Numbered from the stretch's first letter, positions 5,725 to 54,032 are shown. The stretch is DNA of 64,000 bases from an archaeon GW2011_AR5 (GCA_000806115.1 JWKQ01000001.1:217784-281783); one strand, 5' to 3'. Made by a program: numbers and translations. The notes: generated by a model not told the origin, from the letters alone.

Positions 5725-5795
5725 TATAGTGAACCCAGAAAATAAACAGGATATGAATTCTGGGTTCACAGATAGTTCCCAAGGAAATAATACAA
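5725..5795 (+). repeat. structured repeat family, copy A (3' half diverged)
   Basis: TATAGTGAACCCAGAA...TTCTGGGTTCACAGATAG matches copies at 27406, 30105 and 52396(-). Hairpin arms are 5729-5740 and 5758-5769. Confidence 0.6.
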
Positions 5796-12900: not shown

Positions 12901-13254
12901 CCATATGCCATTGCCGCCACTGTGGCGCTCAGCCAGATACCCATTTGTCCTTCAGCGGAAGACCAGCAGGAATGCTTCTCTGTATGCGGCAGCACCTACA
13001 CGACGAACGTTTCGGCTGCGCCTGTCTGCCAGGGTCCCGTAATCGGATACCAGGATGCAAGGTACAAATGCCTGCCCGGAACATGCGGAGGCTATGATAA
13101 CAAACAGGTGAAGATTCTGGTTAAGGGGCCCGATGGAAGCACAGCCATAGATGACACAACCACAACGGACAGCAACGGCGACTTCAGTTACACGTTTATT
13201 GCGCCGGGCGCCGACGGCGAGTTCACCATCATTGCAAGCGTGCCAAGAAGTTAA
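9910..13254 (+). CDS. giant secreted cysteine-rich surface protein (1114 aa)
   Basis: Features: N-terminal anchor/signal FVGLVILAALIMVSVPLPTIGAG; a segment at about 10621-10842 (TGTGTVTSNPPGINCGNTCTFDF..VTLTANPDTGQTFSGWSGGCTG..ICQV) resembling divergent InlB B-repeat domains; many Cys-rich blocks; and a C-terminal Ig/CarboxypepD_reg-like KILVKGPDGST...DSNGDFSYTF. Confidence 0.85.
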   Translation: MESGKFVGLVILAALIMVSVPLPTIGAGVVNAVDFPRAFGSPPADGGTCLSRDFENRCILKGGRYGVGRCVGAFSYSWHVEQTLYLTDIPTQTSLSACYDYCKNNYAQTCREPYIDSSSTVADGTNVPVGQTVTVTYSRNPNLQNSVIGQPLKITFKLSNEPTSYVDSCQSASCQKPFIVGNNLGLDVKAGDTLHYWIDMSLTDGTYIRSPASGVHSFTFASGATPPTNPPAQGKQRLAVTKTGTGTVTSNPPGINCGNTCTFDFNTGTPVTLTANPDTGQTFSGWSGGCTGTGICQVIMNGQKNVAAAFSSTTPPGTTGTITMEVLGQTVVGGSVMLRFRDLPANADPGRSQLEIRDPGGLRVYNSFLTSTLTQGEFDARIAFTPRTQGEHSVILVVNNNAGQRLGELRDQKFTVAAAGTTPAGQCNSACIGDGFGSGRCENTPLSNPQATSSAGGYGCPSTQYCNCYSTSAPPGTPGAGCCAVKEVNTYNSENSIRTRDECSRQGGVWGSTCDQAHNSACNQFCSGNGYGTAGTCNPAGTSSFTNICLNPTTPCVCTGTGQLRNTNIPCRQACSTDTRVSSGYGYGGYGYPGYSSPVVQSQAAQIPFGQCTNNPEALRFAWMASTQTTGTSGQYVREPFPLSQIPGQYQCGDDEFCVCTFLSLSSFSATNPSPVRNTPGSIQWDAPDAIPNPPVKQPNQRDCTVAANATITAMFAGNQTVGAGAASPTRLIQAGDSVTITGNVGKLSDSCEGYTYTCRKEKIIPCDTHNRVLWTSLSAEDCPAGTTLVNDPQEGRTANWRTIVGIALIAASFTPCDGACMSAGISSIIDGAVAGLNCDSGRTPQSNALLYYSMLQQVQERSSQNNPNNQGGGANLNFCCSQNDNAFCEDNSKRGTGYCIGSSVSCPNRYTKRTCPGTNTNANQNANTGGNNNADIDCVNPSEYCSLDGNCNAGSQEECWIGGTQGTCCSYSPTGAAVASNAGTSASAANNAAKYNPYAIAATVALSQIPICPSAEDQQECFSVCGSTYTTNVSAAPVCQGPVIGYQDARYKCLPGTCGGYDNKQVKILVKGPDGSTAIDDTTTTDSNGDFSYTFIAPGADGEFTIIASVPRS

Positions 13255-13297: not shown

Positions 13298-16200
13298 ATG
13301 AGAAAAAAATTCTCACCGAACGCCAAAATGGGAATGGCATCACTTGTACTTCTGGCAATCCTTTTCTCAGCCGTTATTCTTTCACAGCCGTCTTCGGCGT
13401 CGCTCACCTTTCAGGGAAGGGCGTGCAACCAGAACAGCATCTGCGACGTGATACGCAACTGCGACTCTAACGGATGCACAAGCCGCTATGAGAACTGCCA
13501 GGCTTGCGGCACAACCAGCAAGGTGTGTCCCAACGGGGTGGCTACCGCACCCAATTCTTGTGTCGACTCGGGAACGCCGCGTTGCGTCCCCGGCGTGCCT
13601 GTTTGCGGCGCCAGCCAGGGAAGCACCGATCCCCATGTCATTCTCACTTTCACTGTTTTCACCAAGAAGAACCTGATTATGAACGTTTCTCCTGAAAGTC
13701 AAACCGCGCTCGCAGGCAAAACCCTGAACTACAAAATCAGCGCAGAAAACAAGAACCCCAAACAGCTGAGCTTCCAGATTAGTCACCAGATACCGGTGAA
13801 CTGGCAGATAAACATACCGGCCACCGTGTCAATTGCGGCAAACGGAAAAACAGAAATACCTTTCCGGGTAACATCCAATGATTCCGCTTCAGACGCGAGC
13901 TACCCGATAGTTGTAGGCTTGTTCAACTCGGAGCTCAACCTTTTCGGCACGGCAACCGCGCAGTACATCGTCGCATCGCGCGGCTCGCCGACAATTTCCG
14001 CCAGCCCAAGGAGACAGAGAGGATACCCTGGACAACAGGTTCTCTATAATGTTTCTATAACAAACAACGATCCGACTGATTTCGACCCGTCAACAATAAG
14101 CCTGCGCACAAACGCGCCCGCAGGATTCAACGCAGTGTTCACGCCGAACAGCGTGAACCTGCAGCCCGGTGAAACTCGCTATGTGCGCCTTGATGTCACA
14201 TCTCCAAACAACGCGACAGAGGCTCTATACGGGCTCACAATCAACGCCACCGCCAACAGGCTTACCGCAGTGGAGTTCATAGAATACGAGATAGACTTCT
14301 GCGGCGACGGCGTATGCCAGCAGGGCGAGGAAGCAGGTGCTGACGCCTCCGGCGTATCTCGTTTTTGCAGCACGGACTGCCCGGCTGACAGCAATTTCAT
14401 TTGCAACGGACGCTGCGAGAGGGAGGTGGACGACGGGCTTGAATTTTCGGCAACCGTCACCGTACCTTACACGAAGTTCATCGTATGCAGCAGGAACTCT
14501 TCCCTGCAAACCTGCGTTGCGTCCGCCGGAAGGGCGTCGACAAGCCCTTTTCCCGGCATAAATAATACTAACACCTCGGCGAATTGCGGCATAGGCAAGC
14601 CGTGCCTGTGCACGTCGCAGCAACCGGCATGCAAGACGCTCTGCGTCGACAACCGCGGAGTATACTATCTTGCCGCTAGCACAGGGAACAGTTCCTTGCG
14701 GGGCATAGTGAACTGGAGCTACGCATGTCCATGGGTTGATTTGCCCGAGATAAAGGCACTGAGAGAAAGCTTTTCAAATGCAAGGAATGAATACGAGAAG
14801 GCGCAGAGCGCGCTGAGGGAATCTCTGAACGCGCCGAACATGACAGTGCAGCGGAAGGCTGAAATCCGCCCGTGCATTGATGCGCTGTCGACAATAATAT
14901 CCGACACGACAAACTACGTTTCTTACCTTGACGCTGTCATAGCGTGGCCCGGCATCACCAACACAACCGCCGCGCGGCTCCGCGCATCTTCGCTGCGCGC
15001 AACCATAGAATCAACCTATAATGCTTACTGCCGCGGCGCCTCGGGCCTGCTGCAGATTGACAGCATAGTCGCGCCGCAGCTTGAAAAAGGCGAAATCGGA
15101 CAGGTAGTTGTGTCCGTGAGCAACGTCGGCAACACGCCTTACTACGGCTATGTCCAGTGTGACTTCACAGGCGCCGCGGGCGAACGGACATCAGGCAACG
15201 GCACATGCATCGCCATCGCCGGGAGCACGGGATTCGGCTTCGACGTCAATGCCAGCTCGGCAGGCAGGTGGAACGCCCGCTGCCGCACATACGGCTCACT
15301 TTTGACCAACTGCACGCTTGCGGCAATTCACAGCGAAGCGTCATCTCAATTCAACGTTTCAACGCGCGAAACCTTCGTGGTTGACGTCTCAGGCACCTGC
15401 ACAAACACCACTCTAACCTGCAACGTGCGAGGGTCCCAGGCGAATTGTGCGGGATGTGCAGCGCTTGACATCGGAGAGTGTACTTTGACATCTGCCGGGA
15501 ACGGCACAAATTCCACCAGCAGATTTGACTGTCCAAGAGCCGCATACGGCAACCATACTCTGGTAGGCTATGTCCTCGACAACGCAAGGTGCAAGCCCGT
15601 TGCACCGGAACAGAAGAACGTTACTGTGAGATGCACCGGATGCGGCGACGGAATTGTCGATACAAACGAACAATGCGAACTGCCCTACACAAACAACAAC
15701 CAGCGATGCAGCCAGGCTCAGAGCACCTGCCAGGGGCGGCTGTTCGGCATCCGCGATTCAGCCGGATTCTGCAACACCGACTGTTCATGCAGCCCGGACC
15801 AGTATGAATTCTCATGCACACGCGGGCAGTGCGGAGCCGAGTGTGCCGATGGGAACACAAGAACCGTAACCATAAACAAGACTGGCGGAAGCTGCGTATG
15901 CACCCAGCAGTGCTCGCCTTCGTGCGGATGGAACGCCTGCGACTGCGAACCGGGCGGCGGTGGAGGAGGAGGCGGAGGTGGAATATTCACGACACCGCCA
16001 TCTGTCCTGATAAGTCATGCTCCGCAGTCACCGACGTCAACAGGGACAGTTATGCTTACGGCAACAGCAGTCAACGCCACTGAAGTGGAGATATATGTTG
16101 ACGGCTTCATCGTCAGGAGCTGCCAGTCATCAACCTGCGCGCTTACAGCATCGTACACTCCGGGTGTACACAGTTATTTCGCGCGCGCAGTGAACACGGT

Positions 16201-18268
16201 TGGCACGGACACAGACCCCGACCAGGGAACGAAGTCATTTACTATTCCTGCATCAGGCGGAGGAGGAAGCACGAATCAAACCGGCAACCAGACTGTCAAC
16301 GCAAGCGGTATATCTCTTGGAATATCACACTCGCCGCAGAGCCCGACAACAGCAGATACAGTAGCAATAACAGCCACAGCAAGCTCGAACGCCAACAGGA
16401 TAGAAGTTTATGCCGACGGGCTGTTGTCGACGGTATGCAGCAGCTCCCCGTGCATTTTCGAAAGCACATACACAACAGGCACTCACACATACTTTGCAGT
16501 CGCTTATAATTCTGCCGGCAATTCGGTATCAAACCCTGCAAGCGGAACAAGGTCTTTCACTGTGAGGGCTATCAGCACGCCGAACCAGACAACCCCGCCA
16601 GGCCAAACACCGCCGAACCAGACAACTCCACCCAACCAGACAACCACTACAAACAACAGCATATCACTAACGGTTTCGCACAACCCCCAGAGCCCGACCA
16701 CTGCGAACACCGTCACGATAACCGGCGCCGCAAGCGTCAATGCAAACCGCGTAGACATATATGTTGACGGGTTCCTGGCAAGGAGCTGCACCGAGTTCGT
16801 ATGTTCTTACGCATCGTCCTATGCCGCAGGCAGCCACACTTATTTTGCGCTGGCGTCCGACTCTGCCGGCAACTTCGTCACAAATCCTCTAACAGGCACA
16901 AGAAGCTTCACTGTAACACAAACGAACGTTGCCAACGGCACGGGCGGCACCAACGGCACTGGCGGCCTTGGAACTACCAATATTATACTGGATATCAGCC
17001 ATAACCCTCTTGAAATAACCACGAGAGACGCGGTTACGTTAACGGCTGTCGCGCACGGACCGCGCAGCTTCAGGGAGGTCAATATATTTGTCGACGGCAG
17101 CCTCAGGAAAACCTGCACCAACTCGCCGTCGTCACAACCTTGCACTTTCCGCTCCACGTTCCCGGAAGGAAGCCATGAATACTTCGCAACGGCCGTTGAC
17201 GTGACGAACAGCTCGGCTCGCGACCCGGCGTCTGGCTCGGAAGGCTTCACGGTGTCTGCGCCGGCGCCCATTGAGGAGCCGCCGCCTCCGGGCGGGCCCC
17301 CGATAGGAAGCGGGCCTCCGCCGTCGACAGGCGGATCGTCGCAGGGAGCGTGCTTCGCAAAAATCACCGACAGGAACTGCACGTACAACACCGCCACGAG
17401 GCGCTATGACTTGCGGATAGCGGCGATGTGGGACAACGGAACTCACGCGCACTGGGAGATTGACAACGGCGGCGAGAGCAAGATGATTTACACGAAGAAC
17501 TTCACCCACACGGAGCCGCTGTCTGCGCCCGGCATGAAGTCTGTCGAACTGCTAGTGCACAATGTCAACAACTCGCTGCTATGCAAGGACAGTACTGAAG
17601 TATATTGCGGGCCCGGCTCGGCAACAGGAAAGGACATTGACATGATAATAGACGTCAAGGACGTCGTGAAAACCGGACTCATAGACGTGCGCGTCATCGT
17701 TGCGCCTTACATCAACATCAACGGGCTACGCCTCCTCAGCTACGTGGAGAGCCCGCTGAACGTCACCAACGTACGCATGGAAGGCAACACGAGCCTGTCG
17801 AGCATCAGCGTGCCGGCACGCGTGGCCGAGGACAAGTCGTACACTGTCCACACCGCAAGCACGAACCTGCTTGCCGGGAAGAACGTCTCGCTGCTGTACA
17901 AGGTGCGCATAGACAACCCCGGCGAATACAAGCTCATGGCTGTCGCCAACTATTCGGGCACAAGCCAGAGAGTTACAAAGACCCTCAAGGCGACGAACTG
18001 CCCGCAGGCGTTCCCTGTGCTCGCGGTGTCGCCGAGCGGACTGTGCTTCGAATATGCCACGCCATGCGACAAGCCCGAGGGATGGACAATAGTGGAGAAG
18101 TGCCCGGACGCCACGCAGCCGGAGGAATCCAACCCATGGCCGCTTGTCATACTCATAATAATAGTCGTTGTCGCGGCGCTCCTGATATTCAAGAACAGGG
18201 AAAGGCTGAGGGGCATTTCTTTGAGAAGAAAGCCGAAAGAGGAGCTGCCGCGGTTCGAGGAAGAATAA
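13298..18268 (+). CDS. giant membrane-anchored surface protein (1656 aa) with CARDB/NEW3-like domains, Cys-rich CGDG repeats and four Ig-like repeats
   Basis: Features: signal peptide MGMASLVLLAILFSAVILSQPSSA; CGDGVCQQGEE and CGDGIVDTNEQCE motifs; a G9 run; four repeats of about 95 aa; and a C-terminal TM WPLVILIIIVVVAALLIF followed by KNRERLR. Confidence 0.9.
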   Translation: MRKKFSPNAKMGMASLVLLAILFSAVILSQPSSASLTFQGRACNQNSICDVIRNCDSNGCTSRYENCQACGTTSKVCPNGVATAPNSCVDSGTPRCVPGVPVCGASQGSTDPHVILTFTVFTKKNLIMNVSPESQTALAGKTLNYKISAENKNPKQLSFQISHQIPVNWQINIPATVSIAANGKTEIPFRVTSNDSASDASYPIVVGLFNSELNLFGTATAQYIVASRGSPTISASPRRQRGYPGQQVLYNVSITNNDPTDFDPSTISLRTNAPAGFNAVFTPNSVNLQPGETRYVRLDVTSPNNATEALYGLTINATANRLTAVEFIEYEIDFCGDGVCQQGEEAGADASGVSRFCSTDCPADSNFICNGRCEREVDDGLEFSATVTVPYTKFIVCSRNSSLQTCVASAGRASTSPFPGINNTNTSANCGIGKPCLCTSQQPACKTLCVDNRGVYYLAASTGNSSLRGIVNWSYACPWVDLPEIKALRESFSNARNEYEKAQSALRESLNAPNMTVQRKAEIRPCIDALSTIISDTTNYVSYLDAVIAWPGITNTTAARLRASSLRATIESTYNAYCRGASGLLQIDSIVAPQLEKGEIGQVVVSVSNVGNTPYYGYVQCDFTGAAGERTSGNGTCIAIAGSTGFGFDVNASSAGRWNARCRTYGSLLTNCTLAAIHSEASSQFNVSTRETFVVDVSGTCTNTTLTCNVRGSQANCAGCAALDIGECTLTSAGNGTNSTSRFDCPRAAYGNHTLVGYVLDNARCKPVAPEQKNVTVRCTGCGDGIVDTNEQCELPYTNNNQRCSQAQSTCQGRLFGIRDSAGFCNTDCSCSPDQYEFSCTRGQCGAECADGNTRTVTINKTGGSCVCTQQCSPSCGWNACDCEPGGGGGGGGGGIFTTPPSVLISHAPQSPTSTGTVMLTATAVNATEVEIYVDGFIVRSCQSSTCALTASYTPGVHSYFARAVNTVGTDTDPDQGTKSFTIPASGGGGSTNQTGNQTVNASGISLGISHSPQSPTTADTVAITATASSNANRIEVYADGLLSTVCSSSPCIFESTYTTGTHTYFAVAYNSAGNSVSNPASGTRSFTVRAISTPNQTTPPGQTPPNQTTPPNQTTTTNNSISLTVSHNPQSPTTANTVTITGAASVNANRVDIYVDGFLARSCTEFVCSYASSYAAGSHTYFALASDSAGNFVTNPLTGTRSFTVTQTNVANGTGGTNGTGGLGTTNIILDISHNPLEITTRDAVTLTAVAHGPRSFREVNIFVDGSLRKTCTNSPSSQPCTFRSTFPEGSHEYFATAVDVTNSSARDPASGSEGFTVSAPAPIEEPPPPGGPPIGSGPPPSTGGSSQGACFAKITDRNCTYNTATRRYDLRIAAMWDNGTHAHWEIDNGGESKMIYTKNFTHTEPLSAPGMKSVELLVHNVNNSLLCKDSTEVYCGPGSATGKDIDMIIDVKDVVKTGLIDVRVIVAPYININGLRLLSYVESPLNVTNVRMEGNTSLSSISVPARVAEDKSYTVHTASTNLLAGKNVSLLYKVRIDNPGEYKLMAVANYSGTSQRVTKTLKATNCPQAFPVLAVSPSGLCFEYATPCDKPEGWTIVEKCPDATQPEESNPWPLVILIIIVVVAALLIFKNRERLRGISLRRKPKEELPRFEEE
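15985..17255 (+). repeat. four tandem in-frame repeats of about 95-100 codons (Ig-like) separated by N/T/P-rich linkers
   Basis: The repeated peptide pattern is ISH.PQSPT....V.ITA.A......V.IYVDG.....C....C......Y..G.H.YFA.A....G......P..G..SFTV, seen four times. Linkers include TPNQTTPPGQTPPNQTTPPNQTTTTNN. Confidence 0.75.
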
Positions 18269-27405: not shown

Positions 27406-27500
27406 TATAGTTAACCCAGAAAAGATTTCGGACATGAATTCTGGGTTAACAGATAGCTCACAAGAAAGTAATATACTGTTTACTTCCTTGTAGAGCTATA
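27406..27500 (+). repeat. structured repeat family, copy B
   Basis: 95 nt reading TATAGTTAACCCAGAAAAGATTTCGGACATGAATTCTGGGTTAACAGATAGCTCACAAGAAAGTAATATACTGTTTACTTCCTTGTAGAGCTATA. It forms two hairpins. Confidence 0.7.
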
Positions 27501-27514
27501 AGGGGGTAATTAAA

Positions 27515-27829: not shown

Positions 27830-28048
27830 ATGAAATTCAAAGTTTTAATCGAAAAAGGCGAAGATGGCTATTTCGTAGCTACGGTGCCATCTCTTCCTGG
27901 GTGTATTTCACAGGGAAAGACAGAAGCTCAGGCAAAGGAAAACATAAAGGAAGCCATTGAACTGCATCTCGAAGCTTTGGCGGAGGATGGTATACCTATA
28001 ACTCAGCCAACGCACGGCAAAGTAACAGATGTACAGGTTAAGTTATGA
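27830..28048 (+). CDS. hicB: HicB-family antitoxin (UPF0150)
   Basis: MKFKVLIEKGEDGYFVATVPSLPGCISQGKTEAQAKENIKEAIELHLEAL is a typical HicB N-terminal domain. It overlaps the next gene by 4 nt. Confidence 0.85.
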   Translation: MKFKVLIEKGEDGYFVATVPSLPGCISQGKTEAQAKENIKEAIELHLEALAEDGIPITQPTHGKVTDVQVKL

Positions 28049-28260
28049 AACTTCCTGTTGTTTCGGGCAAGGAAACAATAAAGGCTCTTTCTAAGATTGG
28101 CTATTATATTCGTGACCAGAAAGGCAGTCATGTCCACATGCGGCATCCAATAAAAAGACCGCTTACAGTTCCAATGCACAATGAGATAGACAGAGGAACA
28201 CTGAGAGCAATACTCAAGGCTGCTGAAATTTCTGAAAAAGAGTTTATTGAATTGCTGTGA
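28045..28260 (+). CDS. hicA: HicA-family mRNA interferase toxin
   Basis: LPVVSGKETIKALSKIGYYIRDQKGSHVHMRHP...LTVPMHNEIDRGTLRAILKAAEIS matches the YcfA/HicA pattern (G-SH...P.H). Confidence 0.85.
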   Translation: MKLPVVSGKETIKALSKIGYYIRDQKGSHVHMRHPIKRPLTVPMHNEIDRGTLRAILKAAEISEKEFIELL

Positions 28261-28518: not shown

Positions 28519-28667
28519 TGGGCCCGACGAGATTCGAACTCGCGACATCCTGCTAACCTTTTTAGAAAAAAGCTTAACCAAAAACTTCTTTCTATATTAA
28601 GAGGCAGGCGCTAGCGGCGTATGAAATGCGAAGCATTTCGTGCACTACCAGGCTGAGCTACAGGCCC
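28519..28667 (-). tRNA. tRNA-Lys(CUU) with two introns (32 nt in the D-arm and 43 nt at 37/38)
   Basis: The spliced reading is GGGCCTG TA GCTC AGCCTGGTA GAGC G CCTGC CTCTTAA GCAGG ATGTC GCGAG TTCGAAT CTCGT CGGGCCC A. The 74 nt of exon plus 75 nt of intron equals the 149 nt observed. Confidence 0.8.
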
Positions 28668-30104: not shown

Positions 30105-30199
30105 TATAGTGAACCCACAAAAGATTTCGGACATGAATTGTGAGTTCACAGATAGCTCACAAGGAAGTAATACGCTGTTTATTTCCTTGTAGAGCTATA
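30105..30199 (+). repeat. structured repeat family, copy C
   Basis: 95 nt reading TATAGTGAACCCACAAAAGATTTCGGACATGAATTGTGAGTTCACAGATAGCTCACAAGGAAGTAATACGCTGTTTATTTCCTTGTAGAGCTATA. Confidence 0.7.
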
Positions 30200-30377
30200 A
30201 CCTGCGGCGCTCTTTGGTTCTTAGGAAGAAAACATCAACTTCTGTTCAATCAGAAAAAAATGAGCTCGAGGCAGAACAAAAAACGAAACAGAAAGGCGCT
30301 CCGACCTGTCAAGAAACGGCTTGCGTCTTTAATAACGGTTTTTGTGCAACCATCGAAAATTGGCGCGCTTACGGAAA

Positions 30378-31419: not shown

Positions 31420-31971
31420 ATGCGCAAACAACAGGATGTCATGTTAATGAACGGCCATCACTCCCTAGACTTAGACGTCCGCAGGCAGATATACAACTGT
31501 ATCGCCGAATCACCCGGACTGCATTTCCGCGAGATACAGAGGCGCACGGGGCTCGCGACAGGCTCCATAGACTACCACATCCACTTTCTCCACAAGAACG
31601 GGCTCATACGCACCGAGCGCGACAAGAACTATGTGCGCTACTACCCCCTTACCAAGAACTGGAGCGAGGAAGAGAAAGGCGTCCTCAACCTGCTGCGCAA
31701 CACGAAGATGCGCCACATACTCATATTCCTGCTGGAGAAGAAGCGCTCCACGCCGCTGAAGATTGCCGAAGCCACGGGCATATCGTTCTCGACTCTCTCC
31801 TGGTACCTCAAGCAGCTCAAGGAGAAGAACATAATATCCGAAAAGAAGAAGGGGCGCTTCCGCTTCTACAAGATAAACGAGCCGGACATAATTGTAAAAT
31901 ACCTGGTTGCACACAAGTCGAGCTTCCTTGACACCGTTGTGGACAGGTTCATCGAGACCTGGGAGTTCTAA
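31420..31971 (+). CDS. transcriptional regulator with two ArsR-like winged-helix domains
   Basis: IYNCIAESPGLHFREIQRRTGLATGSIDYHIHFLHKNGLI and ILIFLLEKKRSTPLKIAEATGISFSTLSWYLKQLKEKNII. It starts 3 nt after the membrane protein gene. Confidence 0.75.
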   Translation: MRKQQDVMLMNGHHSLDLDVRRQIYNCIAESPGLHFREIQRRTGLATGSIDYHIHFLHKNGLIRTERDKNYVRYYPLTKNWSEEEKGVLNLLRNTKMRHILIFLLEKKRSTPLKIAEATGISFSTLSWYLKQLKEKNIISEKKKGRFRFYKINEPDIIVKYLVAHKSSFLDTVVDRFIETWEF

Positions 31972-32034: not shown

Positions 32035-32529
32035 ATGGACGCGTCGTTCCTGATAGGGCTTGTGGTAAGCTTCGGCTACCTTGGCGTTTTTCTTGCCAGC
32101 CTGATAGGTTCCGCATCCGTGCTGCTTCCCGTGCCTTCTTTTCTCATCGTTACCGCCGCAGGCACTACGCTGAACCCGATACTTGTCGGCATCGTGGCGG
32201 GGCTGGGCTCCGCCATCGGCGAACTTGTCGGCTATCTGATAGGACTGGGGCTGCTTTACGGCAAAAAGAAGATATCCAGGAAAAAAGAGAACAAGTACTC
32301 AAAGCTTGTCAAGAAATGGTTCTCCAGGAAGAAAGGGCCCGTCATAATATTCCTGTTCGCGCTCACGCCGCTACCCGATGACATAGTAGGAGTGATATGT
32401 GGGGCAATCAAGTATGACGTGAAGAAGTTCTTCGTCGCAACGCTCGCCGGAAAGATACTGCTGCACATCGCCCTTGCCTATGCGGGCTTGTACGGGCTGG
32501 AACTGATAAGGATGTTATTTTTTGCGTAA
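32035..32529 (+). CDS. DedA/VTT-domain membrane protein
   Basis: Features: GYLGVFLASLIGSASVLLPVPSFLIVTAAG, and later TPLPDDIVGVICGAIKY. Confidence 0.8.
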   Translation: MDASFLIGLVVSFGYLGVFLASLIGSASVLLPVPSFLIVTAAGTTLNPILVGIVAGLGSAIGELVGYLIGLGLLYGKKKISRKKENKYSKLVKKWFSRKKGPVIIFLFALTPLPDDIVGVICGAIKYDVKKFFVATLAGKILLHIALAYAGLYGLELIRMLFFA

Positions 32530-32585
32530 TTCAAAGGAATCACATTTTTAAAAATTATTTATACCGCATAAAATAATATTATCGA

Positions 32586-35528
32586 ATGCGTAAAGCGTTT
32601 CTGGCGCTTGTTGTGTTCATTGCATTTTCTGCCGTCGTTTATGCAGATTCTTCCACCCTGTCAGTGACGTCGACACCAAGCGGCGCGACCGTGAGCAATA
32701 TCAACACCGGGCAGGTTTACTGCCAGCAGACGCCGTGCAGCGTTCAGGTCACCGTCCCGCCCAATTCCGTCAACATAAAGATTTCACTGGCTGGATACTA
32801 TGACTGGACTTATCTTGTTTATCTCTATGCCAACCAGACGACGAACGTGAGCGCTTCGCTGTCCGCGGTTCCGGCAGATCCCTGCGCCAACGTGACTTGC
32901 AACGTGCAGCCTATTTCGTTGTGCGAGGACAGCTACCTGAGAACTTATAATTCCACAGGAACCTGCAATAACGGCGTATGTTCTTATTCCTCGTCCACGG
33001 CGCTGTGCCCATACGGCTGCTACAACAGCGCATGCGTTTCCCAGAATGCCTGCTCCAACGTGACGTGCAACAGCCCGTACCCTTCTTACTGCAGCGGCAC
33101 AAATCTCGTGACCTATACTCTTCCCGGGACTTGCAACCTTGGCGTGTGCTCCTACTCGTGGTCAATGGCTAACTGCACAGGCGGCTGCTCCAACGGCGCA
33201 TGCCTGAACAGCACAAACAGCACTGGTGGAGGTTCAGGAAGCGGCAACAGCACAAACAGCACTGGTGGAGGTTCAGGAAGCGGCAACACAACAGGAAACA
33301 GCACAGGAGCGCCGCGGGACAACCAGACTTGTACCGACACGGACAGCGGACTTAATTATTATGCACAGGGAACTATCACAGACGCCGCACACCTCACCCC
33401 TCCGACCCGCACCGACTACTGCCTGAAAGACAGTCCCAACGACAATGCCCTGAATTATATCAGCGGATCTCCATACACCTATCTAATAGAAATGTATTGC
33501 AACAGCACATACAATTCCGGCATGAGCTATATTTACAACTGCACATACGGCTGCACCAACGGCGCCTGCCTGAACCAGACTGCCGATCCGTGCGCGGGCG
33601 TCACTTGCAATAATCCGCCTGCGCCGCACTGCACCAACGGCACCATGATAACGCGATATTTTTCTCCCGGCATATGCTCCGGCGGCGTCTGCTCCTATGT
33701 GCCCTACACTAACTGGACATGCTCCGGCGGCTGCTCCAACGGAGTATGCATAAACCAGACAAACGCTTGCGGCAACGCAACATGCAACATTCCACCGTTG
33801 CCTTCATGCAACGGCAATATTCTCAATACTTATTATCCGGGCAGCTGCAATGCCACTACCGGCTCGTGTGATTATCCGCTCGTCACCACTGTGTGCATCT
33901 ACGGGTGTTCAAACGGTTACTGTAACGGAGCGCCTTCGAACGGCTCCGGCGGAGGCGGCGGTTCCAGTGGCGGCGGAGGAGGCGGACCTAGAAGCGCACC
34001 GGCGTGCCCGCAAGGCTGCGAGTGCAGGTACGATGTTTATGGAAACATTGCTTCTTCCTACTGCCAGACAGAACAGAGCTGCAACTACAACGGCGTATGC
34101 GACAAAGGCGAAGGGACAGACTGCCGCGATTGCATAGGAGCTGAATGCCCCGTAAGCAAGACATGCGGCGACGGCTCACTTGTAAACTGCTACCGGTCCG
34201 AATCCGGATGCTCATGCGGAACATGCCCAATACCCGTGCGAAACCTGCCGTTGGGATGCACCCAGGCAACTGAAAACGGCTTTGTGCGCATCATATGCGA
34301 GAACCGTGTAATATGTCCGCCCATTCAAAGCGGGGCAAAAGAGAAGTGCATAAACATCGGCGGCAAGCCGTCGGTTATCAGGGGCGCAAACAGCTGTGAT
34401 ATGTTCCAGTGCGACCTGGACGGGCAGGATACTGCATCCTCAATATTTGCCGCACCTGCAGGATGCCCCTCCCCGGATGACATTTCAATGGGGCTTGAAA
34501 AATGCAGGAGCCTCAACCTGACGGGCGTCATGGCGTTCGAGGGCGGCTGTAAGATCGGCAAGTGCATTGAAAGAAGCACCGGCTGCAAGCCTCTTGCAAG
34601 GGAGTCTGTGGAAGACTGCAGGAACAGGGGCGGCAACATAATAACGTCGGTAGGCGAGAACGGATGCCCGTCGTTCACATGCGCCCGGAAAGAAAGCGAA
34701 TGTGAAAAAGACCTGCCCAAGGACGCTTACCAGAAGTGCGGGGAAAACGGCGGGCAGCTTGTCGTGAGACATGACGACGACGGATGCGTGTCATTCGCCA
34801 GCTGCCTCACGCGCGGAGAGGTCTCGGATTCGTTTGTGGAAGACATAAAGGAAGTGCCAAGCCCGACGGAGATGCTTTCAATTGCATTAAAGCTGGAGAA
34901 CCTGAGGCTTGAATTTGACAAGCTGGCGAAGAAGACAAATGACATCGCGGACTATTACAAATCCGCCGGCTCCCCTGAGGAGAACCGGTTCAGGCGCGTG
35001 TCGGACATGTTCTCTTCGGCGAAAGACAAGGTGGACGAGATAAAGACTAAGATTCGCGACAACCTGGACAGCATTGACGCGGACAAGCTGCTGCAGATAA
35101 AGCAGGATGTCAGGTACCTGAAGGACGTTGTCATAAAGGACATATTGTACGTGATGCTGAGCAGCGGCGACGACATCGAACATATCAAGAGCGGGACAAC
35201 AAAGGACTGCGGAACCGACAACAGCTGCTTTGACCGGGCGATACGGGTATGCCAGCCCGTCACATTCATGCCGGACGGAACGCGCGGCATGCTTGTCGAA
35301 CTGGACGGACTTGAGGGCGACTCGTGCGTCATGCGCGCCAGCATCCCCGAAAGCAGCCTGAGCGCAAGCGGTATAAACCCGCCGTATGAAATGACGTGCA
35401 AGATTCAGAAGTACACCCTTGGCGTGAGCAACCCCGAGAGGGACATATTCCCCTACTGCACCGGCAATTTGCTGCAGGTAATAAAAACAGGCGGAGCAGG
35501 CTCGGCTGTGAAACAAACAGCCGGATGA
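32586..35528 (+). CDS. secreted giant Cys-module protein, paralog 1 (980 aa) with an N-terminal PEGA domain
   Basis: Features: signal peptide MRKAFLALVVFIAFSAVVYA; a PEGA-like segment LSVTSTPSGATVSNINTG...ISLAGYYDW; four modules of about 50 aa with the pattern C.NVTCN.P....C......Y...G.C..G.CSY....C..GC.NG.C; and a conserved C-terminal half with a coiled-coil segment. Confidence 0.9.
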   Translation: MRKAFLALVVFIAFSAVVYADSSTLSVTSTPSGATVSNINTGQVYCQQTPCSVQVTVPPNSVNIKISLAGYYDWTYLVYLYANQTTNVSASLSAVPADPCANVTCNVQPISLCEDSYLRTYNSTGTCNNGVCSYSSSTALCPYGCYNSACVSQNACSNVTCNSPYPSYCSGTNLVTYTLPGTCNLGVCSYSWSMANCTGGCSNGACLNSTNSTGGGSGSGNSTNSTGGGSGSGNTTGNSTGAPRDNQTCTDTDSGLNYYAQGTITDAAHLTPPTRTDYCLKDSPNDNALNYISGSPYTYLIEMYCNSTYNSGMSYIYNCTYGCTNGACLNQTADPCAGVTCNNPPAPHCTNGTMITRYFSPGICSGGVCSYVPYTNWTCSGGCSNGVCINQTNACGNATCNIPPLPSCNGNILNTYYPGSCNATTGSCDYPLVTTVCIYGCSNGYCNGAPSNGSGGGGGSSGGGGGGPRSAPACPQGCECRYDVYGNIASSYCQTEQSCNYNGVCDKGEGTDCRDCIGAECPVSKTCGDGSLVNCYRSESGCSCGTCPIPVRNLPLGCTQATENGFVRIICENRVICPPIQSGAKEKCINIGGKPSVIRGANSCDMFQCDLDGQDTASSIFAAPAGCPSPDDISMGLEKCRSLNLTGVMAFEGGCKIGKCIERSTGCKPLARESVEDCRNRGGNIITSVGENGCPSFTCARKESECEKDLPKDAYQKCGENGGQLVVRHDDDGCVSFASCLTRGEVSDSFVEDIKEVPSPTEMLSIALKLENLRLEFDKLAKKTNDIADYYKSAGSPEENRFRRVSDMFSSAKDKVDEIKTKIRDNLDSIDADKLLQIKQDVRYLKDVVIKDILYVMLSSGDDIEHIKSGTTKDCGTDNSCFDRAIRVCQPVTFMPDGTRGMLVELDGLEGDSCVMRASIPESSLSASGINPPYEMTCKIQKYTLGVSNPERDIFPYCTGNLLQVIKTGGAGSAVKQTAG
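33207..33284 (+). repeat. perfect 39-bp tandem duplication inside the CDS
   Basis: AACAGCACAAACAGCACTGGTGGAGGTTCAGGAAGCGGC occurs at 33207-33245 and again at 33246-33284. It encodes NSTNSTGGGSGSG twice. Confidence 0.9.
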
Positions 35529-35537
35529 GGCGACTAC

Positions 35538-35723
35538 ATGAACAAGAAAACTTTGATACTGATTGCGATCGTACTGGCATCAACGATATTCATAAGCGGA
35601 TGCGCGCAGAGCTCGATAAAGAACGTGGAAGAAGCGAGCGAGGCTGTGACAAATGTCAGCACTGATATCGACGACGTTGCGGGCACGCTCCAGGACATCG
35701 ACTCGCAGCTTGGCGGCGGGTAG
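35538..35723 (+). CDS. 61 aa lipobox microprotein ending in GGG, cassette copy 1
   Basis: MNKKTLILIAIVLASTIFISGCAQSSIKNVEEASEAVTNVSTDIDDVAGTLQDIDSQLGGG. The lipobox-like sequence is ISGC. It starts 9 nt after the giant gene. Confidence 0.75.
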   Translation: MNKKTLILIAIVLASTIFISGCAQSSIKNVEEASEAVTNVSTDIDDVAGTLQDIDSQLGGG

Positions 35724-35829
35724 CTTTTCCTTGCATTATGACAACAGAAAGGCGCCGCGCAGGAAACGTAATTAGAGCCAATCACGGCGCAGGAAAACTT
35801 AATATACAGCCCGGAACGATGTTATTAAA

Positions 35830-38800
35830 ATGCGTAAAGCGTTTCTGGCGCTTGTTGTGTTAATCGCAATTTCTACTGTTGTTTATGCAGAAAATGAAAC
35901 CGCTCCTGTTGACCCGTGCGCTAATGTGCAATGCAACAGCCCGCCGGCAACCGCATGCGAAGGCGGCAGCGTCAAGACATATTCTTCCGCAGGCACATGT
36001 TCCGGCGGCACATGTTCATATTCTTCTTCGCTGACAAGCTGCCCGAACGGGTGCGAGAACGGGCAATGCAAGGCGAACTTCTGTGACACAGCTTCGTGCG
36101 CTCCCGCCAGCAGAACATGCCCCGACGGGTTCACGGCAAGCTGCACAAACACCTGCGACAGGACAACACAGGCGTGCAGCACGTGTGAACCGAGCTGCGC
36201 CGGACATGAGACAGCCCCGACGTCAAACGGAACCTCGGGCGGTTCCGGCGGCGGTGGAGGCGAAGGTTCATCGAACACAAGCGGTTCCGGCGGCACTTCT
36301 TCGGACGCTTGCGCCACAATGACGTGCAACACGCCGCCTGCGAATACGTGCAACGATAATTTTGTGAGGATATTCTCGTCGCCAGGCGCATGCAGTAACG
36401 GACAATGCAGCTACCCTGAAACGGGATATGCGTGCCAGAACGGATGCTCGAACGGCGCGTGCGTCAGCGGGACGGGCGGAAGCGGAGGCACCACGGATGT
36501 TTCTTGCACAGACTCTGATGGCGGAAAAAATTATTTTTCCAGGGGGACCGCCGAATCCAGAAGATCTTCCCAAGACGTTCAGGTGCTCACTGACGGCTGC
36601 ACCTCATCCAGTACGCTGGCTGAGCAATACTGCGCTTCAGATGGTTTGCGAACGGATTATTATACCTGCCCCGGCGCCTGCAGTGACGGCGCGTGCGTTG
36701 AGGGCGGCACGGCCACTAATGGAACAGGTTCGGGAGGCGGCGGGACGACAGGTCAGCATTGCGAGTCAAGACAAACGCTTGGTGTGGACGGCTCAGGCAG
36801 GTGTTCATCATTCCCAAGCACGTGCCTACCACCCGGCTGGAGAGTAGTGGAATCCTGCCCGACTGAAGTACAGTGCGATAATGATAATGTTTGTGACAAA
36901 GGCGAGGAGTATGGCTGCAATGACTGCATTGGCGCAGATTGTCCCATCAAAAAGCAATGCCCTGACGGAAGCAGCGTCAGGTGCGAAAGGACTGAAAGGG
37001 GATGCAACTGCGAGCCCTGCCGGCTGGAAGAAATCCCAGATGACTGCAGGCAGGAAACCGACCAAAGCGGACTAATACGCGTGGTGTGCGACAGGCAGCA
37101 GGAATGTCCGCCTGTGCCGCAGGAAGTGCGGCTGAAGTGTGCGGACGAGGGCGGCACGCCGAGATTCAACAAGGACCACCGCGGCTGCAACGTTTTCCAG
37201 TGCGACTTCGGCGGAGAGAAAGGCAGCTCACCGGTATTCGCGAGCCGCGCGAACTGTCCGTCGCCTGATGCCGTCATAGCTTCGCTCGAGAAATGCAGGG
37301 ACTTGGGGCTGCCCGGCGTTATAGGCTTCGAGGGCGGCTGCAAGATAGGCAAGTGCCAGCAGCGCGAGGAGCGGCACGAGTGCCCGAATCCCACCGAGCC
37401 CGAGAAAATGGAGATGGAAAAGAAATGCAGAGAGGAGGGACAACAGCTTGTCTTCCAGTTTGACGGACAATGCAACCAGCCGAAGTGCGGACAGCGGAGA
37501 GGTAGCCAGTGCGAACGCGACCTGCCGAAGGAGGCTTATGACAGATGCGCCGACGGGGGCGGACAGCTCGTTGTGAGACGAAGCCAGGACGGATGCGTGT
37601 CATACTCGAACTGCATCAGAAGAGGAAACGCCGAGGAATCACTTGTCGACGACATTGACGAGATTCCGGACACGACCGAGTTGCTTTCCATAGCATTCAA
37701 GCTTGAGGAGCTGAAGCTTGAGTTTGACAAATTGTCCGCAAAAACGAATGACATAGCCGAATATTACAAGTCTACAGGCTCATCTGAAGAGAAGAGGTTC
37801 CGCCGGGTGTCGGACATGTTCTCGTCGGCGAAGGACAAGGTCGACGAGGTAAAGACAAAGCTGAAGGACAGGGCGAGGGATATCGACAAGGACGACGTGC
37901 TTGAGATAAAGCAGGATCTCAGGTATCTAAAGGACGTCGTGCTCAAGGACATACTGTTTATGATGCTCGGCAGCGGAGAAGAAATCGAAGAGATAAAGAG
38001 CGGTTCTGTAAAGAGCTGCGGCACTGACGAGAGCTGCTTCGACAGGGGATTCCGCGTCTGCCAGCCGCTCACGTTCAGGCCTGACGGAAGGGAAGGGCCT
38101 GTTGTTGAAGTGACGGGGCTTGACGGCGACGCGTGCGTGATGGAGGTCAAAATGGAAGCGGGACAGGGGCCTCCGGGAGGACCTTACTCAATGACGTGCA
38201 AGATTCAGAAGTACACATTGGGCGTGAGCAACCCGGAGACGGATATATTCCCGTACTGCTCCGGCAACCTTCTTGACATGATAAAGAAGTATGGAAACGG
38301 GCCTCCGGGCGTTCCGGGAAAGTGCAGCGGCGACGAATGCAAGGACTACTGCGGACGGGGGCCGACAGAGGCAAAGGAATGCCTGCAATACATGAGCGAT
38401 GTCCTGCCGCCTGAGGCGAAGCAGCACCTGACGGCGCTTGCTGAAGGCAAAAGTCCCGGCGGCTTTGGATTCGGAGGAAGAGATGAATCCGGGGACGACT
38501 TCGGCGAGGGCGAGTTCCGCGATGACTTCGGAGGCGATGATTTCAATCAGGGAGAGTTTCAGGACGATTTCAGCGGAGGCGGCGAATTTGAAGGGGAGTT
38601 CAACGAAGAATTCGGCGGGCAGCAGCTCTGCCCAGATGGCGACTGCGACGACTTCGAGCAGCGCACGGGCGCGTGTCCGCAGGATTGCGGCGGCTCTTCA
38701 GCTTCAGGCGGAGGCGGGGGCGAGTTTGAAAACGAGTTTGAAGGCGGCTTTGAATCAGGAAGTTCAAGCGGCGGAGGCGGCGGCTCCGGCGAATGCAGCG

Positions 38801-38868
38801 GCTGCCTGAACAATGGAATATGTGATCAGGGCGAATGCAGCGACTGCGGAGACTGCCGAAGAAGATAG
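35830..38868 (+). CDS. secreted giant Cys-module protein, paralog 2 (1012 aa) with an acidic D/E/F/G-rich C-terminal extension
   Basis: The first 13 residues (MRKAFLALVVLIA) match paralog 1 at all but one position. It carries the same Cys modules and a conserved C-terminal half (DLPKEAYDRCADGGGQLVVRR...). The tail contains GDDFGEGEFRDDFGGDDFNQGEFQDDF. Confidence 0.9.
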   Translation: MRKAFLALVVLIAISTVVYAENETAPVDPCANVQCNSPPATACEGGSVKTYSSAGTCSGGTCSYSSSLTSCPNGCENGQCKANFCDTASCAPASRTCPDGFTASCTNTCDRTTQACSTCEPSCAGHETAPTSNGTSGGSGGGGGEGSSNTSGSGGTSSDACATMTCNTPPANTCNDNFVRIFSSPGACSNGQCSYPETGYACQNGCSNGACVSGTGGSGGTTDVSCTDSDGGKNYFSRGTAESRRSSQDVQVLTDGCTSSSTLAEQYCASDGLRTDYYTCPGACSDGACVEGGTATNGTGSGGGGTTGQHCESRQTLGVDGSGRCSSFPSTCLPPGWRVVESCPTEVQCDNDNVCDKGEEYGCNDCIGADCPIKKQCPDGSSVRCERTERGCNCEPCRLEEIPDDCRQETDQSGLIRVVCDRQQECPPVPQEVRLKCADEGGTPRFNKDHRGCNVFQCDFGGEKGSSPVFASRANCPSPDAVIASLEKCRDLGLPGVIGFEGGCKIGKCQQREERHECPNPTEPEKMEMEKKCREEGQQLVFQFDGQCNQPKCGQRRGSQCERDLPKEAYDRCADGGGQLVVRRSQDGCVSYSNCIRRGNAEESLVDDIDEIPDTTELLSIAFKLEELKLEFDKLSAKTNDIAEYYKSTGSSEEKRFRRVSDMFSSAKDKVDEVKTKLKDRARDIDKDDVLEIKQDLRYLKDVVLKDILFMMLGSGEEIEEIKSGSVKSCGTDESCFDRGFRVCQPLTFRPDGREGPVVEVTGLDGDACVMEVKMEAGQGPPGGPYSMTCKIQKYTLGVSNPETDIFPYCSGNLLDMIKKYGNGPPGVPGKCSGDECKDYCGRGPTEAKECLQYMSDVLPPEAKQHLTALAEGKSPGGFGFGGRDESGDDFGEGEFRDDFGGDDFNQGEFQDDFSGGGEFEGEFNEEFGGQQLCPDGDCDDFEQRTGACPQDCGGSSASGGGGGEFENEFEGGFESGSSSGGGGGSGECSGCLNNGICDQGECSDCGDCRRR

Positions 38869-38880
38869 GAGGTTATGCAA

Positions 38881-39066
38881 ATGAACAAGAAGGCAATGGT
38901 GTTGATAATCCTTGTGCTGACATCCATGGTTTTCATAAGCGGATGCGCGCAGAGCTCGATAAAGAACGTTGAAGAAGCGAGCGAGGCTGTGACGAACGTG
39001 TCGACAGACATCGACGACGTTGCGGGCACGCTCCAGGACATCGACTCGCAGCTTGGCGGCGGGTAA
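38881..39066 (+). CDS. 61 aa lipobox microprotein ending in GGG, cassette copy 2
   Basis: ORF 38875..39066. The ATG at 38881 (MNKKAMVLIILVLTSMVFISGC...) is preferred by analogy with copy 1 and by its spacing from GGAGGT. The last 45 residues are identical to copy 1. Confidence 0.75.
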   Translation: MNKKAMVLIILVLTSMVFISGCAQSSIKNVEEASEAVTNVSTDIDDVAGTLQDIDSQLGGG

Positions 39067-52083: not shown

Positions 52084-52217
52084 GGGCTCGTGGTCTAAAC
52101 TGGAAAAGCTTTTCTTTTGGCAGCAATGGAAAAGAACTATTATCCAGAGTGATGCTTCCATGGCATAGAGATTTTCGCCGAAGGAAGAGGCTCCGGGTTC
52201 AAATCCCGGCGAGTCCA
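52084..52217 (+). tRNA. tRNA-Ala(GGC) with two introns (44 nt at D-arm position about 21/22, 52106-52149; 16 nt at 37/38, 52166-52181)
   Basis: It has the same acceptor and T-arm as the other tRNA-Ala, including G3:U70. The anticodon stem is CTTCC/GGAAG and the loop is AT-GGC-AA. Exons of 74 nt plus introns of 60 nt equal the 134 nt observed. Confidence 0.75.
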
Positions 52218-53939: not shown

Positions 53940-54026
53940 GGGACGGTAGCTTAGCCTGGTAGAGCACTTGACTGATATCGCATGTCAGAGATCAAGAGGT
54001 CGCCAGTTCAAATCTGGTCCGTCCCA
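53940..54026 (+). tRNA. tRNA-Ile(GAU) with a 13-nt intron at 37/38
   Basis: The reading is GGGACGG TA GCTT AGCCTGGTA GAGC A CTTGA CTGATA[TCGCATGTCAGAG]A TCAAG AGGTC GCCAG TTCAAAT CTGGT CCGTCCC A. Confidence 0.85.
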
Positions 54027-54032
54027 CTCATT

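Follow-up and report, generated by a model that had tools for sequence, protein, structure and literature searches.

Two old versions of a conserved two-gene cassette with exchanged ends, and a putative membrane tether, in archaeon GW2011_AR5

The Aenigmatarchaeota are uncultivated DPANN archaea whose cell-surface molecules are essentially unknown. A 64,000-nucleotide (nt) stretch of DNA from the groundwater archaeon GW2011_AR5, a metagenome-assembled genome of this phylum (GCA_000806115.1 JWKQ01000001.1:217784-281783; hereafter the window), carries two neighbouring copies of a cassette made up of a gene for a large secreted protein (big1 and big2) and, just downstream, a gene for a protein of 61 residues (small1 and small2). 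The locus raises two questions: how two cassettes with near-identical ends and divergent middles came to lie side by side, and what such a pair of proteins might do. On balance we favour the answer that they are two old paralogous versions of a conserved two-gene envelope module, that their ends have been exchanged, and that the small protein is the putative tether of the large one.

The open reading frames bore out the initial annotation of this DNA, made from the sequence before any database search, which had read the region as a two-gene cassette occurring twice in tandem:

32586-35528, plus strand: big1, 980 residues, type 1
35538-35723, plus strand: small1, 61 residues, after a 9-nt gap from big1; lipobox FISG↓C (Cys22)
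35830-38868, plus strand: big2, 1012 residues, type 2
38881-39066, plus strand: small2, 61 residues; an alternative start at 38875 gives 63 residues
big1, by residue: 1-20 Sec signal peptide; 23-93 PEGA; 98-152 and 154-208 Cys modules; Asn/Ser/Gly linker; 249-328 CTDTD domain; 334-390 and 393-447 Cys modules; Gly linker; about 470-972 conserved C-terminal half; no acidic tail; 23 N-x-S/T sequons
big2, by residue: signal peptide; 28-81 Cys module; another Cys-rich segment; 159-213 Cys module; 226-291 CTDSD domain; 343-824 conserved C-terminal half; an extension with an acidic D/E/F/G repeat at about 877-985 (38458-38784); terminal CSGCLNNGxCDxGECSDCxDC knot

The gap between the large and the small gene was 9-12 nt, and a Shine-Dalgarno-like GAGG or GGAGG preceded the small gene. 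For small2 the start at 38881 is more likely, judged from the MNKK found also in homologs and the better spacing from GGAGG. In both cassettes the small gene was in frame with the large gene, with the stop codon and 2-4 codons between them; read-through would fuse the two proteins, and the shared frame is probably trivial. The small1 and small2 proteins were identical to QT00_C0001G0287 and QT00_C0001G0289 of archaeon GW2011_AR5 (GenBank; 440-kb contig). The large protein has about 80 cysteines and long Gly/Ser linkers. Searches with a hidden Markov model (HMM) showed that the Cys module of about 55 residues, first noticed as a recurring pattern, is real, with four copies in big1 and two in big2 (each E 1e-19 to 1e-24). 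The initial annotation had also placed PEGA in copy 1 only and an acidic tail in copy 2 only, and both placements held: PEGA (PF08308) matched big1 at 34.1 bits against a gathering cut-off of 20.8 (E 2.6e-8), the Pfam HMM scan did not find it in big2, and the D/E/F/G repeat occurred in big2.

The tandem copies might have been an artefact of assembly, with the junction at 35724-35829 as the place to look. This was ruled out because eight contigs from different ENA and Joint Genome Institute (JGI) assemblies (L066-L073) ran collinearly across that junction at 99.3-100% identity, so the duplication stands. The population variants seen were a change in the number of a 39-nt repeat and a few single-nucleotide polymorphisms (SNPs):

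33207-33288, plus strand: 2.1 copies of a perfect 39-nt unit in tandem, within the big1 linker; encodes NSTNSTGGGSGSG (Tandem Repeats Finder)

Exactly one 39-nt unit (33207-33245) was missing from L068, so that the copy number is polymorphic in the population; each unit contributes two N-glycosylation sequons. In a collection of 5.8 billion proteins, small1 and small2 were each present on 16-17 contigs; the best match to big1 there was 57% identical, and the large proteins were not returned as exact matches. A 423-residue fragment from a JGI metagenome (P0030) was 99.8% identical to big2.

We then asked how widely the pair is distributed. Searched by word index, the C-terminal half of big1 matched 39 proteins, the named ones coming from Aenigmarchaeota metagenome-assembled genomes, and a HMMER profile search recovered 485 clusters at 50% identity, 215 of them at E < 1e-30. 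Scanning the GTDB species genomes gave 59 loci, nearly all labelled Candidatus Aenigmatarchaeota or 'archaeon' (four carried the labels Woesearchaeota, Iainarchaeum or Methanosarcinales; labels are as deposited). Each of these loci had a single large gene within its ±6 kb flank, and two were found only in the window; the sole genome noted with two loci, CSMAG_2771, had them on separate contigs. A small-gene homolog lay directly 3' of the large gene in 62 of the 63 loci where the contig continues (HMM). Two relatives, L005 and L006, were syntenic with the window on both sides and had one cassette each; the shared genes before the cassette encode LSM, S8e, a helix-turn-helix (HTH) regulator like HVO_0163 and a VTT-domain protein, and those after it a 141-residue membrane protein, PCMT, TatD and TPM. 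The large and small genes are a phylum-wide, normally single-copy pair of the Aenigmatarchaeota. No paper in the literature library searched mentioned GW2011_AR5 or this family.

The small proteins of the two cassettes both begin with MNKK, followed by a 14-residue hydrophobic region and I-S-G-C22, and thus have the features of a lipobox. To our knowledge, lipidation has never been shown in Aenigmatarchaeota. The mature part of about 39 residues is acidic and contains an amphipathic heptad helix of about 32 residues, in which, as read from the sequence, hydrophobic residues occupy the heptad a and d positions between about residues 26 and 57. Among 59 distinct small homologs, 39 had a lipobox, and the rest lacked the cysteine and had an N-terminal hydrophobic helix that looked uncleaved. 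After either anchor the same helix was conserved, I-K-S-x-E-E...A-V-T-N-V-S-x-D-V...L-x-D-I-D-x-x-L-G. Judged by these N-termini, the anchor type has been swapped during evolution between lipobox and transmembrane (TM) helix; about one family member in three has the latter:

Small partner with a TM helix: L020, L029, L030, L039, L041-L045, L048-L051, L053, L055, L056, L058, L064

Nearly all the large proteins had a signal peptide, and only 2 of 64 had another hydrophobic 19-mer (> 1.6 Kyte-Doolittle). Since the small protein is always an anchored single helix, the large one is exported and unanchored, and the genes are adjacent, an anchor-cargo pair is the simplest reading.

In Braun's lipoprotein Lpp/OprI, as in the small protein, a lipobox signal peptide precedes one short helix of heptad repeats, which there serves as a tether. 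The small protein differs in being archaeal, with no peptidoglycan to bind, in having a TM anchor in about a third of its homologs and in being always paired with a large gene, and it scored far below the family cut-offs (NF040598, 18.2-18.8 bits against 43; PRK15396, 22.8 against 108). Other database matches of the small proteins fell short of the cut-offs and were discarded as noise from signal peptides or coiled coils. According to published predictions, lipobox proteins are common in DPANN archaea and depend on Sec (PMC12462473), and the n-region, h-region and I-S-G-C lipobox of the small protein are like those of the AliA/AliB-dependent lipoproteins of Haloferax volcanii (PMC12462473).

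We modelled the large protein in two halves with AlphaFold2. The model of big1 residues 493-980 (predicted local distance difference test (pLDDT) 79, predicted template modelling score 0.73) began with a Cys-rich part, continued with a unit of short helix and beta-hairpin that occurs four times, each time with conserved cysteines, and had a C-terminal alpha/beta domain. Model positions 268-366, about residues 760-858 of big1, formed a three-helix bundle (pLDDT > 90) that holds the family's best-conserved motifs, ELLSIAFKLE, YYKSTGS, RFRRVSDMF..AKDKVDEIK and RYxKDV.IKDILYVML. The N-terminal model had an overall pLDDT of 62, with the four Cys modules as small all-beta domains (pLDDT 80-94) and the PEGA segment at low confidence. 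Foldseek returned nothing below E = 0.08 (C-terminal model against PDB and BFVD, N-terminal model against PDB), its sensitivity being limited by multi-domain queries and tiny disulfide domains. A profile of the Cys module searched against a protein database gave 74 candidates, none significant at that database size, and in a local scan the module was confined to the N-termini of the same large-protein family. Pfam found Kazal domains in the N-terminal parts of 7 of the 31 family members scanned and none in big1 or big2.

The arrangement that we propose is as follows. The large protein would be exported through Sec as a disulfide-rich protein without a membrane anchor of its own. The microprotein, presumably co-transcribed, would consist of one amphipathic helix of about 32 residues behind a membrane anchor, here a lipobox cysteine and in other members a TM helix at the N-terminus; it would sit on the outer face of the membrane and bind the conserved C-terminal half of the large protein, where docking would most plausibly be on the three-helix bundle. 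The N-terminal Cys modules, which evolve fast, might project outward as an interaction or adhesion surface.

How the two cassettes are related was addressed with trees of the C-terminal half. A type-2 clade with 100% bootstrap contained big2 and the single-copy orthologs of syntenic relatives, and big1 fell outside it. Within the clade, big2 paired with the L006 protein (P0003) at 74-98% bootstrap, and P0002 belonged to the same group. The L006 protein (L006:6933-10034, 1033 residues) is a full-length ortholog of big2, matched in its modules, acidic tail and terminal Cys knot. The big1 protein was 54-59% identical to every type-2 protein, big2 included. A profile search found one other known type-1 member, P0055, which has in common with big1 the PEGA domain, a long CTDTD domain (82% over 50 residues), two modules and the lack of a tail. 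Both type-1 proteins were rich in N-x-S/T sequons (23 in big1 and 25 in P0055, against about 13-14 in composition-preserving shuffles, of which 0-1 in 500 reached the observed number); type 2 and more distant members had 0-8 and no excess. P0055 lies on L074, a 4.6-kb contig with a single cassette followed by PCMT, and this PCMT fell inside the same 100%-supported clade as the PCMTs of the window, L006, L005, L007 and L010. Hence, within one PCMT-defined clade, the locus may have type 2 alone, type 1 alone (L074) or both types together (AR5), three states in all.

Judged from these relationships, cassette 2 (type 2, with the acidic tail) is the resident ortholog of the single-copy cassette of relatives, and cassette 1 (PEGA, sequon-rich, without tail) is a separate deep-branching type. 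The clade support, the existence of P0055 and the equal distances of 54-59% argue for old paralogous (or xenologous) types and against a young duplicate pair, and the duplication followed by diversification that the initial annotation proposed was not upheld.

The cassettes were also compared along their length. An exact comparison found an identical run of 33 nt at the starts of the large genes (32585-32617 and 35829-35861), and the first 63 nt were 90% identical (blastn). In the small genes, which were 85% identical over 185 nt (blastn), the identical runs measured 38, 23 and 56 nt (35589-35626, 35628-35650 and 35667-35722), and the last 135 nt contained 9 differences. The N-terminal halves of big1 and big2 aligned module by module only (protein comparison), and the C-terminal halves were homologous, with 54% amino-acid identity over 488 residues and 72% nucleotide identity over about 780 nt (blastn). 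The near-identical ends and divergent middles described earlier were thus recovered. The tracts concerned are these:

32585-32647, plus strand: 5' exchange tract, cassette-1 copy; signal peptide region of big1
35589-35723, plus strand: 3' exchange tract, cassette-1 copy; small1 codon 18 to stop codon
38932-39066, plus strand: inferred donor of the 3' tract; mature part of small2

The mature small proteins (codons 19-61) were 100% identical; their genes had seven synonymous differences, of which six fell in codons 38-43, an unconverted patch within the 3' tract (35649-35666). The synonymous divergence (dS) was 0.26 in the mature small part, whereas the best-conserved block of the large genes, 180 codons long, gave 1.05; in the 5' tract (signal peptide of the large protein) it was 0.21, against 1.05 to saturated elsewhere. 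Just 5' of the 3' tract, in the hydrophobic part of the small signal peptide, 7 of 18 residues differed and dS was saturated. Where the residue was identical, the codon was too in 36 of 43 cases in the mature small part; the large-gene block gave 67 of 119 (Fisher p = 0.0015) and the large-gene signal peptide 14 of 16 (Fisher p = 0.027). The longest runs of identical codons were small 44-61 (18 codons, P = 0.006), small 18-29 (12) and big 2-10 (9); in this test, a permutation on silent-informative codons, only the 18-codon run was significant alone, and all three runs lay at the borders that the initial annotation had named. Purifying selection alone is insufficient to account for the identity of small1 and small2, because 10 of the 39 mature residues are changed between small2 and its L006 ortholog, a pair whose large partners are nevertheless 81% identical in their C-terminal halves.

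The direction of exchange was examined by comparing the two parts of the small protein separately:

small1 against small2: signal peptide 13/21, mature part 39/39
small1 against L074 (type 1): signal peptide 16/21, mature part 24/39
small1 against L006 (type 2): signal peptide 12/21, mature part 29/39
small2 against L006 (type 2): signal peptide 20/21, mature part 29/39

The signal peptide of small1 was nearest to the type-1 small protein of L074, its mature part equalled that of small2, and both mature parts were nearer to L006 (29/39) than to L074 (24/39). On these counts small1 combines a type-1-like signal peptide with a type-2-like mature part. The unconverted six-codon patch encodes the family-invariant TNVSTD, in which small1 uses AGC for Ser, as L074 does, against TCG in small2 and L006. 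At the other border, the big1 signal peptide MRKAFLALVVFIAFSAVVYA resembled those of type 2 and not the P0055 one, MRKLFVVSVLFFALLVSTTVHA; the first 32 coding nt of big1 were identical to big2 and differed from L006, L074 and L008. A type-1 body with a type-2-like signal peptide means that tract and flank are phylogenetically incongruent. Since the mature part of small1 and the 5' end of big1 both match type 2, both tracts are cassette-2 sequence within cassette 1. Silent-site identity together with this incongruence agrees with the earlier proposal that the borders were homogenised by gene conversion, which we regard as strongly indicated at the 3' end, in the small gene, and as moderately indicated at the 5' end, in the large-gene signal peptide. 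On this reading cassette 1 received cassette-2 sequence by non-reciprocal recombination at two places, the signal peptide of the large gene and the mature part of the small gene, and as a result both large proteins are now paired with an identical anchor helix.

At the site matching 35627 (small1 codon 30), one of the few that distinguish small1 from small2, L069 had GTT in place of GTG, and GTT carries the small2 base; the variant is compatible with ongoing exchange or with coincidence.

Gene conversion between tandem surface-protein paralogs is known from pilE/pilS in Neisseria and vlsE in Borrelia. The AR5 locus is like these in its short non-reciprocal tracts between neighbouring surface-protein paralogs. 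It is unlike them in that conversion homogenises the conserved ends and does not shuffle sequence from silent donors into an expression site; moreover, both cassettes have their own promoter-like region and there is no sign of programmed variation.

How the two types came together at one locus can be read in two ways, both of which fit the three-state distribution: an ancient duplication may have been followed by differential loss, or a type-1 cassette may have been captured laterally. Being saturated even between orthologs, dS did not discriminate between them. Under capture, which bears on origin only, cassette 1 would have come from a different Aenigmatarchaeota lineage that carried type 1 and been integrated beside the resident cassette by recombination in the conserved ends, for example by a circular intermediate crossing over in the signal-peptide region, and the identical ends would be at least partly footprints of integration as opposed to later conversion. 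The three locus states within one PCMT-defined clade suit this route, as does the fact that both types occur together in no other sampled genome; a crossover in the 5' tract gives exactly the order big1 before big2, and cassette-2 sequence is present in both tracts. However, ancient duplication and differential loss account for the same distribution, and the small-gene tract is patchy, as conversion predicts and unlike the product of one crossover. Cassette 1 is flanked by no mobile-element genes or integration scars, its GC content is unremarkable, and L074 covers only 4.6 kb of its genome. We consider lateral capture possible but rather doubtful.

With regard to function, the closest working analogy to the proposed anchor-cargo pair is the S-layer of Sulfolobales, in which slaA and slaB are adjacent and bicistronic (PMC5744192). 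SlaA is a large glycosylated outer protein without an anchor and SlaB combines a coiled-coil stalk with a membrane anchor, the outer protein diverging freely while the anchor is conserved (PMC5744192, PMC12175726). The likeness lies in adjacent genes for an outer protein and a membrane-anchored partner. The differences are that there is no sequence or fold similarity (Pfam, PDB, Foldseek), that the anchor here has 61 residues and an N-terminal lipid or TM anchor compared with about 400 residues, beta-sandwich domains and a C-terminal TM helix in SlaB, that the large protein is disulfide-rich and modular, and that the S-layer of this phylum is predicted to belong to a different family (bioRxiv 10.1101/2024.05.28.596244).

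One could go further and take the large protein as the S-layer lattice protein of Aenigmatarchaeota and the small one as its stalk, a true S-layer of the SlaA/SlaB type. The pair is indeed large and secreted and is conserved throughout the phylum, mostly as a single copy, type 1 has PEGA and an excess of sequons, and the bicistronic-like arrangement with a membrane anchor, here read from the gene arrangement, is that of slaA/slaB (PMC5744192). A structure-prediction survey, however, assigned the S-layers of Aenigmatarchaeota to an MSTP-like beta-sandwich class (bioRxiv 10.1101/2024.05.28.596244), and no such fold was seen in our two models, which show Cys repeats, a helical bundle and all-beta modules; DUF1608 had no Pfam match at E <= 1 in the window proteins. 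About 80 cysteines and long Gly/Ser linkers are also atypical for lattice proteins. We judge the lattice role improbable; because of the class assigned by the survey, the large protein is probably some other tethered surface component.

Slightly less probable still is that the large protein is a secreted effector or toxin and the microprotein its membrane-anchored immunity protein or chaperone. The tight linkage with a tiny downstream gene, the secreted Cys-rich large protein and the Kazal inhibitor domains of some members are what such a system might show. Its polarity would nevertheless be opposite to that of polymorphic toxins, since here conservation lies in the C-terminal half and variation in the N-terminus. 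Genomes across the phylum have one copy each and no orphan immunity arrays, neither PADLOC nor toxin families gave a match, and the switch between lipid and TM anchor with a conserved ectodomain helix fits a tether better.

The initial annotation had also invoked diversifying evolution of an exposed middle, as in variable surface or receptor-binding families. In 50-codon windows with finite dS, dN/dS was 0.04-0.47 (big2 against L006 and big1 against P0055), and it was below 1 throughout big1 against big2; these tests have little power because dS is saturated, and as far as they go they did not bear out diversifying selection. Type-2 orthologs were 44-72% identical in the N-terminal half against 82-94% in the C-terminal half. 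The N-terminal differences consisted of gains, losses and rearrangements of whole domains (PEGA, Cys modules, CTDxD domain and linkers), and substitution there was faster, yet constrained. Neither the locus nor the population variants, which amounted to the repeat change and a few SNPs, gave evidence of silent donor cassettes, invertible segments or hypervariability, and the likeness to variable-surface families was not sustained. A recent tandem duplication in situ with positive selection on the exposed middle and borders kept by conversion is very improbable, for although the tandem arrangement and homogenised ends are real and the N-terminal regions of orthologs do evolve faster, big1 lies outside and equidistant from a fully supported clade of big2 and other species' single-copy orthologs, a type-1 ortholog exists elsewhere, and dN/dS stayed below 0.5 in all windows where it was computable.

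Several points weigh against the two-type, exchanged-end tether module that we prefer. The 5' tract is statistically weak alone, its 9-codon run being non-significant. The trees are neighbour-joining trees on Kimura distances of the C-terminal half and not maximum-likelihood trees, and the group of big1 with P0055 in that half reached a bootstrap of only 65%. Dating of the duplication by dS was abandoned, because synonymous sites were saturated even between orthologs, and the events therefore carry no dates. Consistent with the initial annotation, which had not recognised the family, the large proteins had no Pfam (besides PEGA), NCBIfam, PHROG, PADLOC or PDB-sequence match, and Foldseek gave none either. 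Binding of the small to the large protein is suggested by anatomy and conservation, and adjacent, co-conserved genes could be linked for reasons besides tethering.

The same imperfect palindrome was noticed ahead of each large gene:

32526..32543, plus strand: imperfect palindrome GTAATT-N6-AATCAC, 43-60 nt 5' of the big1 ATG, followed by the TATA-like box TTATTTATAC
35768..35785, plus strand: second copy of GTAATT-N6-AATCAC, 43-60 nt 5' of the big2 ATG, with the TATA-like box CTTAATATAC

The pattern GT[AG]ATT-N6-AAT[CT]AC occurred only twice in the window, once ahead of each large gene. The palindrome was also present at -60 in L008 and L010, and in L007 too if its true start lies downstream of the called reading frame, and variants of it were found in L006 and L074. 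The palindrome is a candidate operator, the same for both cassettes, and the A/T-rich box a candidate promoter; with motif and box ahead of its large gene, each cassette would seem to be transcribed from a promoter of its own. The palindrome might be bound by the syntenic HTH regulator like HVO_0163 that is encoded two genes upstream, at 31420-31971.

Elsewhere in the window, an intergenic element of about 95 nt occurred in three copies (30105-30200, 27406-27501 and 5725-5793) with 83-91% identity. It contains the hairpins GTGAACCCAGAA..TTCTGGGTTCAC and ATAGCTCACAAGGAAGTAA..TTATTTCCTTGTAGAGCTAT, matched no Rfam family at gathering score, and could be a repeat like a miniature inverted-repeat transposable element or a small RNA. 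A HicB-like antitoxin and HicA toxin pair lies at about 27830-28260 (L066 293-723), upstream of the L37e, LSM and S8e genes. Matches to tRNA were found at 28519-28667 (minus strand), 52084-52217 (plus strand) and 53940-54027 (plus strand); two are 134-149 nt long and presumably contain introns, and the remaining one, called by ARAGORN, has an odd four-base anticodon, 'gata'. The tRNAs with introns, like the S8e gene, are in keeping with an archaeal source. Two other genes upstream encode secreted-looking proteins that, by their composition and domain matches, are candidates for further envelope proteins:

13298-18268, plus strand: 1656 residues, 70 Cys, 41 N-x-S/T sequons, NPCBM_assoc/Big_7 matches
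9910-13254, plus strand: 1114 residues, 60 Cys, InlB B-repeat match

These findings change no major paradigm, and the function is one that we infer. What is new is a phylum-wide pair that had gone unannotated, with at least 215 clusters at 50% identity, and an organisation that can be tested, a secreted modular protein with a separate mini-anchor. A switch between lipobox and TM helix with a constant ectodomain helix is a rare functional logic for a protein of 60 residues. At the AR5 locus, concerted evolution appears restricted to the parts that the paralogs must share, the export signal and the anchor, and two ancient surface types appear able to occupy one locus singly or together. More tentatively, and at a strength well short of the tether reading itself, the pair might be an undescribed envelope system restricted to the Aenigmatarchaeota, in which modular surface proteins rich in disulfides would all fit one universal socket, a helix of 40 residues with a lipid or TM anchor. 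Glycan-coated type 1 and acidic-tailed type 2, both ancient, would then be alternative coats or host-attachment modules that are swapped, lost or, as in AR5, co-expressed, and conversion would keep the socket identical so that either coat fits. If this were true, it would offer a handle on the way in which uncultivated archaea that presumably depend on hosts make their contact surface and vary it.

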